Source of the DNA: a virus
Taxonomy: Duplodnaviria; Heunggongvirae; Uroviricota; Caudoviricetes
Length of the DNA: 11,000 nt
Virus record (IMG/VR): IMGVR_UViG_2740892233_000009
Reading direction: 5' to 3' (one strand)
Part shown: piece after piece, positions 1 to 8,640 of the stretch
Position numbering within the stretch: position 1 is the first letter of the stretch
How the letters are laid out: each line of letters begins with the position of its first letter
Notes under the pieces: generated by a model
What the model was told of the DNA's origin: nothing
The model's input: only the letters and a program-made list of their open reading frames with translations
The model's database searches: none
Translations under genes and position numbers: made by a program

Positions 1-1401
1 CGGCGCTTCTGGCAGCAATATTTCTGTTCAGGCGTTCCTGTGTGGCCGCCAGACGGGCCTCTGCAGCAATCTGCATCTCCGTCCCGCGGGCTGCCGCCAC
101 GGCCTGCTGAGCACGGTACACGGCTGCCCTTGCCCGCGCTGTGGCAATCTGCGTTCCCCTGAACTGTGCTTCCGCCAGTGCAACTTCATTACGTGCAGCC
201 GTCANNNNNNNNNNCCCCCGACGGCAACCAGTGCCCCCACGGCTGTTGCCACATTATCAATCTGTCCGGCAACACCGTTCAGCACGCCGGAGAGCGTTTT
301 CGTCACCCCGCTGGCCTCATTCGCACCGCCCACCCAGGCCATAAAGGCGTTTTCCACCTTCGTGATACTACTGGAAACCGTTTCCGGCATGGCCGCATAT
401 TCATCACGTAATATCCCCAGCTGGCNNNNNNNNNNGCCCACGGCTGTTGCCACATTATCAATCTGTCCGGCAACACCGTTCAGCATGCCGGAGAGCGTTT
501 TTGTCACCCCGCTGGCCTCATTCGCACCGCCCACCCAGGCCATAAAGGCGTTTTCCACCTTTGTGATACTACTGGAAACCGTTTCCGGCATGGCCGCATA
601 TTCATCACGTAATATCCCCAGCTGGCTGATTAACGCGGGGACCACTTTATCCGCTGTCAGTTTTCCGTCATCCGCCATTGCCTTCAGATCTTTACGGGCC
701 ACGCCCATACCCGCAGCCAGTGCACGTACGATCCGGTCACCACTTTCATTGACCGAATTAAACTCCTCACCACGCAATACACCCTGCGCCAGCGCCTGAC
801 TGAACTGGGTGATCACCGAGCCCGCCTCTGCCGTACTGGCACCGGAGATTTTCAGCCCTGTCGAAATGGCCTCCGTCACCTTCAGCACATCATCAGCACT
901 GTAACCATATTCACGCATTGAGGCGGCTGAGCGGGCAAACAGGGCCGCATTATCCGAAAATGCGGTGCCTGTCCGCTGGCTGATATCCATCAGCACTTTC
1001 TGTGATGACGAAAATTCATCAGATGACTGCGACGCCTGTTTCAGACGGGCATTCACGGAACTCCACTCATCAGCCAGTGAAATCAGGTGTCCGGTGGCAA
1101 AGGCACCGGCAAATGCGCCAGCCATTCCGACAGCAGAACCGCGAATTTCCGTCAACTGGCTGTTCAGTTCTGCCAGGGCACGTCGCTGCTCCCGGGCTGC
1201 CGCAGCGGCCTGACGCCCGCCATTCTGCAGGGTCCGGTAATATTCACTGCCCATACGGGAAGCCCGCTGGATCTCCGACTGGAATGACTGCGAATTTGCC
1301 GAAATTTTGATAATCAGTTNNNNNNNNNNACGCTGGAGCTCCGACTGGAATGACTGTGAATTTGCCGAAATTTTGATAATCAGTTCACGTAACGTCGCCA
1401 T
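1..1401 (-). CDS. Tail tape measure protein, N-proximal and internal fragments (pieces 1-204, 215-425, 436-1319, 1330-1401); 3' end beyond window start
   Basis: Minus-strand frame is open through each piece. Start ATG at 1401-1399 (MATLRELIIKISANSQSF...). Ala/Gln-rich coiled-coil N-terminus, then GEEFNSVNESGDRIVRALAAGMGVARKDLKAMADDGKLTADKVVPAL, typical of tape measure N-terminal domains. Lies directly downstream of the G/T chaperone pair. Pieces 215-425 and 436-626 are overlapping variants with 3 SNPs in about 190 bp. Confidence 0.75.
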
Positions 1402-1435
1402 TCACCTTTCTCCGGGCAAAAAAANNNNNNNNNNT

Positions 1436-1851
1436 GAGGCTGCCGAGCGGGCAAACAGGGCCGCATTATCTGAAAATGCCGTGCCCGTCCGCTGGCTGAT
1501 ATCCATCAGCACTTTCTGTGATGACGAAAATTCATCGGATGACTGCGACGCCTGTTTCAGTCGGGCATTCACGGAACTCCATTCATCGGCCAGAGAAATC
1601 AGGTGTCCGGTGGCAAAGGCACCTGCAAATGCCCCCGCCGTTCCGGCAGCTGAAGCGCGGATTTCCGTCAACTGGCTGTTCAGCTCAGCCAGGGCGCGTC
1701 GCTGCTCCCGGGCGACTGCGGCAGCCTGACGCCCGCCATTCTGCAGGGTCCGGTAATATTCACTGCCCATGCGGGAAGCCCGCTGGATCTCCGACTGGAA
1801 TGACTGCGAATTTGCCGAAATTTTGATAATCAGTTCACGTAACGTCGCCAT
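1436..1851 (-). CDS. Tail tape measure protein, N-terminal 138 codons (second allele of the same region as 436-1401)
   Basis: ATG at 1851-1849 preceded by GGAGAAAGGTGA. The protein differs from the 436-1401 copy at a few residues (AAAVA vs AAAAA, ASAAGTAG vs GSAVGMAG). Confidence 0.75.
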
Positions 1852-1869
1852 TCACCTTTCTCCGGGCGT

Positions 1870-1890
1870 AAAAAAACCGCCTCAGCGGTT
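1870..1890 (-). terminator. Hairpin plus U7 tract between the T stop and the tape measure start (intrinsic terminator or attenuator)
   Basis: Minus-strand RNA AACCGC-UGAG-GCGGUU followed by UUUUUUU, then RBS and ATG at 1851. The alternative allele (2279-2292 and 1991-2004) has CCUGC-UGUG-GCAGG at the same position, which is one extra base pair inserted in both arms. Confidence 0.35.
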
Positions 1891-6306: not shown

Positions 6307-6390
6307 TCCTCCCTCCTCATAACNNNNNNNNNNGTTCAGAACACTTATCATCTGTGTCAGACGACCTGCAGATATTGCCATTCCCCCTCC

Positions 6391-6869
6391 TCATAACACC
6401 GTCGGACAACGCAAATCGTAAATCAGCACGGAAACAGAAAACGGCAGCTCCCCCTGAATCAGTTCTTCCCGCTCCGCAAGATCCGGATTCCGGTACAGCA
6501 TCCCGGTCAGTCGCATGGCAGCCCCCTTCATCCGGGTTANNNNNNNNNNACCGTCGGACAACGCAAATCGTAAATCAGCACGGACACAGAAAACGGCAGT
6601 TCCCCCTGCACGAGGTCTTCCCGCTCAGCAAGATCCGGATTCCGGTACAGCATCCCGGTCAGTCGCATGGCAGCCCCCTTCATCCGGGTTAATGCCTCGC
6701 CCGGGATCAGCTCACCGTCCTCACTAATCACTTTATCCCGGCTGCCCTGAATGTAGGCCAGCAGCACGGCGGTAGCCTGACGAACCTTGTCCATCAGCAT
6801 GTCATCATCCGCGTCATGGTCAACACGCAGATGTGCCTTGATCTCTTCCAGTGTCAGTAATGCCGTCAT
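6391..6869 (-). CDS. gp6-like head-tail connector protein, about 108 aa; pieces 6550-6869 and 6391-6539 overlap as alleles
   Basis: ATG at 6869 preceded by AGGAGG-CTGAAA. N-terminus MTALLTLEEIKAHLRVDHDADDDMLMDKV is the classic connector N-terminal motif. Stop TGA at 6393-6391 lies 10 nt upstream of the head closure start. Confidence 0.7.
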
Positions 6870-6871
6870 TT

Positions 6872-8640
6872 TCAGCCTCCTGCATCCCGCCCACGTTTTG
6901 CAGCCAGGGTCCAGGCTGATGAATGAGCTTCTCCGGGTTTATCTTCGGTCATACTGTTGCAGTGCCACAGCGAGCCCCCCCACGTCACCGTATCGCCGGG
7001 GTGGTAGGTNNNNNNNNNNACGTTTTGCAGCCAGGGTCCAGCCTGATGAATGAGCTTCTCCGGGTTTATCACCGGTCATACTGTTGCAGTGCCACAGCGA
7101 GCCCCCCCACGTCACCGTATCGCCGGGGTGGTAGGTTTCACCGGCTCTGAACACACCGCGGTAGAGCATCACCGGCAGGGAAAATGTTTTTTCCGTACGC
7201 TGGCCACTGCTCTGCCGGATCACCACAGAGAACAACCGCTCATCCGTCATGCTGACGTCGATATCCGCCACCCCGTCAACCAGGCATTCCCATCCCCGCA
7301 TCCCGTGCGTTTTTTCATACGCCCGCCAGAATCCGCCCTGGTGTGTGGCATACGTGCCCCGGGGAAAGGATTTTTGATCGTCAATGGCGGGGAGTATTTC
7401 CAGAGCCGTGGCATCACGCCCGTCCTGCGGAGCCGGCAGGGCACTCACCGCATCCAGAACCGCCTTCTGCAGAACATCCGGATCGTAGTCACGACCATCA
7501 CGCGGAACATGAATATGGCTTACCGCCTCCTTCACCATCTGTTCAAGCATCGGACGCACATCATCCGGGGTGAGACTTTTACCGTCCGCCGGCTGTGGAA
7601 TATTTGCGACCGCATCATTCACCGCCTTCTGCAGTACTTCCGGATCGTAGTCACGACCGTCACGCGGAACAGGGATATGGCTTACCGCCTCCTTCACCAT
7701 CTGTTCAAGCATCGGACGCACATCATCCGGGGTGAGACTTTTACCGTCTGCCGGCTGCGGAATATTTGCGACCGCATCATTCACCGCCTTCTGCAGAACA
7801 TCGGGATCATAGTCACGACCGTCGCGCGGAACAGGGATATGGCTTACAGCCTCCTTCACCATCTGTTCAAGCATCGGACGCACATCATNNNNNNNNNNGC
7901 CGTCTGCCGGCACCGGTATTTTCGCGACCGCATCATTCACCGCCAGCTTCAGTACTTCCGGATCGTAATCACGACCGTCACGCGGAGCAGGGATATGGCT
8001 TACGGCCTCTTTCACCATCTGCTCAAGCATCGGACGCACATCATCGGGGGTGATACTTTTGCCGTCCGCCGGTACCGGAATCTTCGCAACCGCATCATTC
8101 ACCGCCTGCTGCAGTACCTCCGGATCATAATCACGACCATCACGCGGTACCGGAATGCCCCCCACAGCGTCATCCACCATCGCCTGCAGAACCGGACGCA
8201 CCTCATCCACCGTCACATGCTTNNNNNNNNNNATAATCACGACCGTCACGCGGAGCAGGGATATGGCTTACAGCCTCTTTCACCATCTGCTCAAGCATCG
8301 GACGCACATCATCGGGGGTGATACTTTTGCCGTCCGCCGGTACCGGAATATTCGCAACCGCATCATTCACCGCCTGCTGCAGTACATCCGGATCATAATC
8401 ACGACCATCACGCGGTACCGGAATGGTCCCCACAGCGTCATCCACCATCGCCTGCAGAACCGGATGTACCTCATCCACCGTCACATGCTTCTGTAATACC
8501 GCCGACAGGGAAGCCAGTTTCTCTTCAAACGCTTGTGCCTGCGCGGCCATCTTCCCCTCAAATGTGCACTGTAAATCCGCCAGCACCGTGGAGAATTCTT
8601 CGCCCAGTGCACGAATAATGGACAGTTCCCGTTCCGTCAT
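6872..8640 (-). CDS. Large repeat-rich protein of unknown function: N-terminal coiled-coil, at least 4-5 tandem 54-aa repeats, C-terminal beta-rich domain with a chitin-binding-like (CBM5/12-like) motif
   Basis: ATG at 8640-8638 overlaps the portal stop in an ATGA. Continuous coding frame on each piece (8233-8640, 7899-8222, 7020-7888, 6872-7009). Stop TGA at 6874-6872, 2 nt before the connector ATG. Repeats are IPVPRDGRDYDPEVLQKAVNDAVAN + IPQPADGKSLTPDDVRPMLEQMVKEAVSH. Function not recognised. Confidence 0.6.
7440..8470. repeat. Tandem 162-bp (54-codon) coding repeats inside the repeat-protein gene; copy number unresolved because of N gaps at 7889-7898 and 8223-8232
   Basis: The motif cgcatcattc recurs at 7611 and 7773, at 7929 and 8091, and at 8359, with a degenerate copy near 7449; spacing is exactly 162 bp within each piece. 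Pieces 7899-8222 and 8233-8490 overlap as alleles. Confidence 0.8.

Follow-up and report, generated by a model that had tools for sequence, protein, structure and literature searches.

Fragments of near-identical lambdoid prophage modules in an 11-kb viral scaffold: a probable artefact of short-read assembly

The window considered here is the whole stretch of 11,000 nucleotides analysed from the Caudoviricetes record IMGVR_UViG_2740892233_000009, and it carries the morphogenesis genes of a prophage. All of the real genes lie on the minus strand and make up a single, collinear head-tail module of 7.75 kb, which comprises on the head side the genes for the major capsid protein, a small open reading frame (ORF), the portal, a repeat protein of 407 amino acids (aa), the head-tail connector and the head closure protein, followed on the tail side by an HK97-gp10-like gene, gp17, the major tail gene with its Ig-like domain, the chaperones G and T, and the tape measure. 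Pfam hits confirm the identities of the genes (Table 1), and for gene order there is agreement with the closest complete-genome match, a prophage of Escherichia coli 03_3013, as annotated in RefSeq. Judged by gene content, gene order and near-identity, the window is a lambdoid morphogenesis module of the Shiga toxin (Stx) phage-like kind, with an HK97-type head and a lambda-type tail, and as a whole it is 95-97% identical to Stx1a-, Stx2a- and Stx2c-converting phages. The way in which this module is written over positions 1-8490 is the subject of this work: the region is very probably an artefact of short-read assembly, composed of allele fragments of prophage head-tail modules, and not a biological arrangement.

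The window is interrupted by 22 N-runs, from the one at 205-214 to the one at 8223-8232, and every one of them is exactly 10 N long (22/22), as the first-pass annotation of this sequence had counted. Between the runs stand 23 pieces (p0-p22; Table 1) of 59-2768 bp, which together hold 10,780 called bases. Four of the 23 pieces are shorter than 100 bp (59, 65, 74 and 95), and these include the 59-bp p10 and the 65-bp p12, the very short pieces to which that annotation had drawn attention. The N-runs are assembler spacers and hold no measure of gap size, since the pieces flanking them overlap rather than stand apart. In truth, flanking pieces overlap by up to 401 bp at one extreme and are separated by 56 bp at the other, with the overlaps amounting to 56-401 bp.

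When overlaps were scored by all-against-all blastn, nearly every piece was found to overlap its neighbour or its next-but-one as an alternative allele of one locus, at 84.6-100% identity. The earlier claim that the pieces on either side of a gap represent the same locus thus stands, whereas the 1-3% of single-nucleotide differences that came with it was too narrow, as divergence among overlapping pieces spreads over 0-15.4% and, apart from p7/p8, p4/p5 and p2/p4, most pairs are 95-99% identical. Three different 3' ends of a T-like gene are indeed present (FAAQS, SFAAMS in the ORF at 2018-2287, and SLAAMS in the ORF at 2307-2588, each followed by a stop), except that the first does not begin at 1899, its stop codon occupying 1898-1900. 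The two major tail alleles are those of p7 and p8, and to the two tape-measure N-termini that had been noted, with start codons at 1401 and 1851, p2 adds a third N-terminal allele. Moreover, the redundancy does not end with the spacers at 8232, as had been supposed; positions 7965-8222 repeat 8233-8490 at 97%, and the redundancy thus extends to 8490.

The pieces were compared with 17 fetched loci, and larger searches were run against 5,426 complete genomes. On the prophage of E. coli 03_3013 (locus L002; NZ_CP074958.1, 1.24-1.26 Mb), the pieces span 4023-11769, or 7,747 bp, and cover 4,923 bp of it once, 2,454 bp twice and 313 bp three times, with 56 bp uncovered. The 10,780 called bases therefore represent 7.75 kb and are about 28% redundant, and the threefold coverage requires at least three haplotypes, which agrees with the proposal of the first-pass annotation that at least three related tail modules are represented. 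The order of the pieces is that of their right-hand coordinates on L002, with p9/p10 as the sole exception. Similarly, the 11,000 bases of the window map onto just 7,422 bases of phage Stx1a_11KH263 and collapse to 7,746-7,747 bp on each of four prophages of AP027185.1 (loci L004-L007). The duplicated order was absent from the complete-genome and phage copies examined, all of which are single collinear modules of 7.4-7.75 kb.

An informative feature of the pieces is where they begin and end. Twelve of the 22 internal 3' ends fall exactly 64 identical bases past the last difference from the overlapping piece (p1, p2, p4, p6, p7, p9, p13, p14, p15, p16, p18 and p19), the overlapping partners that define such ends being p1-p2, p2-p4, p4-p6, p7-p8, p16-p17, p18-p19 and p19-p20. 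In about 11 pieces the first base is itself a difference from the overlapping piece (p2, p3, p8, p9, p10, p12, p15, p17, p18, p21 and p22). Pieces of the same path, for their part, abut to the base on L002 and share no overlap: p8 is followed directly by p11 (6709 to 6710), p11 by p13, p12 by p14, p13 and p14 by p16, and p17 by p19 (7868 to 7869). Judged by this geometry, the pieces are nodes of a de Bruijn graph with k = 65 that were written without their 5' k-1 bases; a piece starts at its first variant and ends k-1 bases past its last because the nodes lack their leading k-1 bases. A k = 65 graph simulated from the four AP027185.1 copies consisted of 30 nodes and reproduced the size classes of the window, including 59-65, 108 and 113, with the nodes of 113 and 108 equal in size to p13 (113) and p14 (108). 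The spacer at 205-214 is the only one that hides real sequence, as 56 bp of L002 (4227-4282) are absent between p0 and p1; being shorter than k-1 = 64, this stretch agrees with the loss of no more than the 5' prefix of p1 that was left unwritten.

Do the alleles exist outside the window? The closest single match is the prophage of the complete genomes 2013C-3513 (NZ_CP027555.1) and 2013C-4187 (loci L014 and L016), which shows 0 differences to p0, p3, p5, p7, p10, p12, p15 and p17 and represents haplotype B. The haplotype B thread (p0, p3, p5, p7, p12, p15 and p17) is thus an exact match to a known prophage, while L002 shows 0 differences to p1, p8 and p10. None of the 17 fetched loci matches every piece exactly. 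The p7 and p8 alleles both occur at 100% in NZ_CP027555.1 (4.45 Mb vs 0.36 Mb) and again in NZ_CP027546.1 (2.57 Mb vs 1.15 Mb); AP027185.1 holds at least four prophages encoding exactly the 454-aa portal of the window; and p22, which shares 99.5-99.7% identity with complete genomes of E. coli, several carrying the label O26, was matched at up to 20 places in a complete genome. The pieces are real prophage alleles, and they are co-resident in single genomes at distant loci. With the k = 65 signature, the exact abutments and these real alleles, the earlier description of the window as a linearised assembly graph of near-identical prophage copies holds. Sequencing-error bubbles were also considered and are ruled out, since the allele pieces match finished genomes exactly. 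Of the complete genomes in which these alleles were matched, 548 records have a best copy of at least 99% identity for the p7 allele and 495 for the p8 allele.

These results suggest the following course of events. Judging from its relatives, the sample would have held at least three homologous lambdoid (Stx-phage-like) head-tail modules, most probably in one chromosome of an E. coli of the Shiga toxin-producing (STEC) or enteropathogenic (EPEC) type. As the piece boundaries show, stretches identical over more than 64 nt merged into shared nodes of a de Bruijn graph with k = 65, and every variant cluster gave one node per allele. A scaffolder then set the shared and the allele-specific nodes by estimated position, and alleles sharing a position were written in succession, with a fixed minimum spacer of 10 N and without their leading k-1 bases. 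By this route, about 7.75 kb of real sequence appears as 10.78 kb, and the ORFs that cross spacers are chimeric. As for the program, Velvet keeps its nodes without their first k-1 bases, uses odd k and writes gaps of <10 bp as 10 N. An odd k of 65, a fixed spacer of 10 N, starts on variant bases and abutting nodes form a pattern that would fit these conventions. The scaffolding may therefore have been done by Velvet, and another assembler with the same conventions is possible.

Several points weigh against this explanation. At the other 10 of the 22 internal 3' ends, the 64-nt signature is missing; to explain these, one would have to assume alleles or coverage breaks that the window does not contain. 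One piece, p20, has no match of at least 99% in the 5,426 complete genomes, its best being 98.0%; this piece may represent either an allele not seen before or a path wrongly threaded through a tandem repeat. The assembler, the value of k and the copy number are all things that we infer from the sequence alone. Finally, a literature search found no paper that documents the 10-N rule of Velvet, and the paper describing CISA mentions only splitting at >10 Ns (PMC3610655).

It is possible, albeit unlikely, that the same graph artefact drew its alleles from a mixed sample, that is, from two or more E. coli strains or a heterogeneous culture. Copies within one genome and copies from several genomes cannot be told apart in the window, and a mixture would be in keeping with the lack of a fetched complete genome that matches all pieces exactly and with p20, which is <=98% identical to any complete genome. 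However, carriage of multiple copies per chromosome is the norm, as the matches of p22 at up to 20 places and the four or more identical-portal copies of AP027185.1 illustrate; the p7 and p8 alleles occur together in single complete genomes; a graph built from the copies of one genome already gives the pattern; and a 36-mer specific to p3 was not found in a metagenome collection, its one carrier among the contigs searched being an unrelated IMG/VR contig of 5.4 kb. One genome with several prophages is sufficient for the pattern and is the norm for such strains.

A second alternative, which we consider rather doubtful, is that exported contigs were ordered on a reference in the manner of ABACAS or Mauve and joined by 10-N linkers, with no paired-end scaffolder involved. 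The sorting of the pieces by right-hand reference coordinate, p9/p10 apart, is what such ordering would produce. Contigs exported singly carry 64 shared bases at both ends, however, so that allele nodes should also have 64 shared bases before their first variant, yet the pieces start on the variant, and those of one haplotype abut exactly where an overlap of 64 would be due. Trimming of each piece against the preceding one does not account for p11, whose first 58 bases repeat p10. The boundaries thus favour scaffolding inside the assembler over a later, reference-guided concatenation.

It is very unlikely that the alleles, rather than being fixed copies in one chromosome, record a moment in a heterogeneous population whose head-tail modules undergo active recombination, with p20 a fresh recombinant. 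Genuine tandem or segmental duplications within one prophage, the N-runs being small unresolved gaps, have a precedent in the real 162-bp repeat of 3.3 copies in a complete genome, but this reading is hardly credible when the copies examined are single and collinear, the partial gene fragments go down to 59 bp with limits set by the 64-nt rule, and every morphogenesis gene would be disrupted. Some collections do mask stretches as N, but masking over real bases by a database or pipeline is next to inconceivable here, as it keeps length and colinearity, whereas here the flanking sequences share 56-401 bp and the window exceeds the real module by 3 kb.

If the region at 1-8490 is an assembly artefact, the ORFs called across it need to be read with care. 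By our count from the ORF listing, 42 of 73 ORFs of at least 50 aa cross an N-run. The four longest plus-strand ORFs (7050-8321, 5007-5912, 2252-2959 and 2020-2724) all cross spacers and lie antisense to real genes, which bears out the warning of the first-pass annotation that N-spanning ORFs, most of the long plus-strand ones included, are artefactual. On the minus strand, the ORFs 202-1401, 5779-6381 and 6939-8249 are chimeras, each of two alleles of one gene. The genes that lie whole within one piece are those for the portal, the small ORF at 9947-10168, the major tail protein (p8), gp17 (p11) and T (p6).

Table 1. Spacers, pieces and gene features of the window, with L numbers denoting fetched loci and identities with overlapping pieces taken from blastn
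Feature	Position	Strand	Content	Matches in fetched loci and complete genomes	Identity with overlapping piece
10-N spacers (start of each; end is start +9)	205, 426, 1320, 1425, 1981, 2269, 2919, 3419, 4342, 4612, 4681, 5078, 5153, 5276, 5394, 5478, 5985, 6324, 6540, 7010, 7889, 8223	.			
p0	1..204	-	Internal tape-measure fragment, haplotype B (L014-like)	L002 4023-4226; 0 differences to L004, L014, L016	
p1	215..425	-	Tape-measure fragment, haplotype A; allele partner of p2 start	0 differences to L002 4283-4493	p2 98.4%
p2	436..1319	-	Tape-measure N-terminal part, with the gene's initial 16 nt missing; near haplotype A; first base a variant	L002 4303-5186, 5 differences	p4 93.3%
p3	1330..1424	-	Tape-measure start codon (ATG at 1401) and upstream spacer, haplotype B; 3/56 positions differ from p2	0 differences to L014, L016	
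p4	1435..1980	-	Third allele: first 139 tape-measure codons (ATG at 1851), intergenic spacer, last 27 codons of T (...FAAQS, stop); TMP_3	Closest L009, 3 differences	p5 85.8%; p6 90.6%
p5	1991..2268	-	Last 83 codons of tail assembly protein T (...SFAAMS, stop), haplotype B	0 differences to L014, L016	p6 94.2%
p6	2279..2918	-	Complete T (2307-2588; ...SLAAMS, stop) and 3' two-thirds of tail assembly chaperone G; last 64 nt = p8 3430-3493	3 differences to L012, L017	
p7	2929..3418	-	G 5' end and C-terminal 131 codons of major tail protein (Ig-like domain), haplotype B	0 differences to L011, L014, L016; 100% in many complete genomes	p8 84.6%
p8	3429..4341	-	G 5' end and complete major tail gene (3567-4283, 238 aa), haplotype A; tail-tube and Ig domains	0 differences to L002, L003	p9 96.3%
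p9	4352..4611	-	Further allele: first 26 major tail codons, intergenic spacer, gp17 3' end	11 differences to every fetched locus; 100% in O145:H28, O103:H2 12009 and other complete genomes	p11 96.2%
p10	4622..4680	-	59-bp node: one base and first 58 bases of p11	0 differences to L014, L016 and to L002	
p11	4691..5077	-	Complete tail completion gene gp17 (4698-5042) and 3' end of HK97-gp10-like gene; Tail_completion_gp17	1-2 differences to L002 (2) and L005	
p12	5088..5152	-	65-bp node: one variant base + 64, exactly k; haplotype B	0 differences to L013, L014, L016	
p13	5163-5275	-	Two-allele bubble with p14 within HK97-gp10-like gene	0 differences to L005-L007	p14 95.4%
p14	5286-5393	-	Two-allele bubble with p13 within HK97-gp10-like gene	2 differences to L002	
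p15	5404..5477	-	74-bp allele node in HK97-gp10-like gene, haplotype B; variants at bases 1 and 10, then 64 bases	0 differences to L008, L013, L014, L016	p16 98.6%
p16	5488..5984	-	HK97-gp10-like 5' part and head closure 3' part; HK97-gp10_like	L002 7210-7706	p17 98.8%
p17	5995..6323	-	Head closure gene, haplotype B	0 differences to L014, L016	
p18	6334..6539	-	Alternative allele of head closure/connector gene junction	1 difference to L011	p19 95.1%
p19	6550..7009	-	Head-tail connector gene and repeat-protein gene 3' end; Phage_connect_1	L002 7869-8328	p20 97.4%
p20	7020..7888	-	C-terminal domain and 162-bp repeat units of 407-aa post-portal protein	L002 8212-9080 at 93.4%	
p21	7899..8222	-	Repeat units of 407-aa protein gene; allele of p22 start		p22 97.3%
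p22	8233..11000	-	One unbroken piece: repeat-protein 5' part (ATG at 8640), portal, small ORF, capsid C-terminal part	99.7% to E. coli 03_3013 (L002), 9 differences	
TMP_3 (Pfam)	1435-1851	-			
Phage_tail_T (Pfam)	2307-2588	-	4.6e-19		
Phage_TAC_1 (Pfam)	2612-2917	-	1.4e-48		
Lambda-like tail tube and Ig domains (Pfam)	3567-4283	-			
Tail_completion_gp17 (Pfam)	4698-5042	-			
HK97-gp10_like (Pfam)	5488-5782	-			
Phage_connect_1 (Pfam)	6550-6869	-			
162-bp (54-aa) tandem repeat	7447..8476	-	In repeat-protein gene; genuine, intragenic		
Phage_portal (Pfam)	8637-10001	-	2.3e-79; 454 aa		
Small ORF	9947-10168	-			
Phage_capsid (Pfam)	10213-10989	-	1.3e-14; gene from 10213 to beyond 11000		

Part of the self-similarity at 7447-8476 has a different origin, a genuine 162-bp tandem repeat within the repeat-protein gene that the first-pass annotation had missed. 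In the complete-genome locus L004 (11588-12120), the repeat is present in 3.3 copies at 98% identity, and internal 162-bp repeats also occur within p20. The array occupies about 1.0 kb in the window vs about 0.53-0.6 kb in complete genomes, an inflation that arises because p20, p21 and p22 stack over each other. The 407-aa protein itself is fragmented in the window (6872-8640) and intact in L005 (11362-12585), and it has the 54-aa repeat in 3.3 copies. No Pfam family was found above threshold for this protein, the hits being weak only (e.g., CBM_5_12 near the C-terminus, E = 0.0024), and a role in head decoration or as a fibre-like protein is possible.

Between the haplotypes, no segment differs nearly as much as the Ig-like C-terminal domain of the major tail protein. 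Its two versions (2929-3418 vs 3484-3961) share 84.6% nucleotide identity with 3 indels, and most other allele pairs are at 93-100%. In this sequence comparison, the domain looks like a mosaic or diversification hotspot.

Some of the co-resident copies look defective. The repeat-protein gene of L004 is split into 38 + 377 aa and the major tail gene of L005 into 76 + 165 aa, gene calls for the capsid give 60 + 568 aa in L004-L007 but 645 aa in other loci, and an IS600-family element breaks the portal gene in several complete genomes. A homopolymer near the end of the portal gene (about 8650-8660, a G-run about 17 nt before the stop at 8637-8639) also differs between copies. It is G5 in the window, L004 and L014, and in the G5 copies the stop codon of the 454-aa portal, a TGA, shares bases with the ATG that starts the following gene (ATGA). 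In L002 the run is G6 (at about 9420), and there the portal and the 407-aa repeat protein are fused into an 861-aa coding sequence, listed in RefSeq as 'phage portal protein'. In L014-L017 this span carries the label 'frameshifted', and the annotation is inconsistent across genomes. The G6 may stem from a sequencing error in L002, or the run may be a genuine site of slippage.

The feature described here is biologically not novel, as a well-known kind of prophage module lies under the artefact. It is well known that several near-identical lambdoid prophages co-exist in genomes of the STEC type and that they are mosaic, the Ig-like domain of their major tail protein being the part that diverges most. 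The value of the observation lies in quality control, since calls of genes, repeats, 'duplications' or long ORFs from 1-8490 would be false. Fixed 10-N spacers, ends exactly k-1 bases past the last variant and starts on variant bases together make a filter for scaffolds that needs the sequence only, and such a filter could automatically flag and de-duplicate scaffolds of this kind. In public assemblies, 3,744 indexed blocks contain exactly the 454-aa portal of the window, and in 2,439 of these blocks the longest contig carrying it is <5 kb, which marks the module as a systematic breakpoint in short-read assemblies.

Phage Stx1a_11KH263 (LC744179.1) and the prophage of E. coli 03_3013 have the same gene content and order as the window, the former at 97.0% identity over 96% of the window; p8 is 100% identical in both, and p1 is 100% identical in the latter. 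However, these two carry each gene once, in 7.4-7.75 kb, whereas the window has two to three alleles of many segments. Short-read assemblies of STEC fragment at mobile elements (PMC9278759). Like the window, short-read assemblies of STEC and enterohaemorrhagic E. coli (EHEC) contain several near-identical prophage morphogenesis modules per genome, but in such drafts the fragments are normally left as separate small contigs, whereas in the window they have been strung into one false scaffold of 11 kb.

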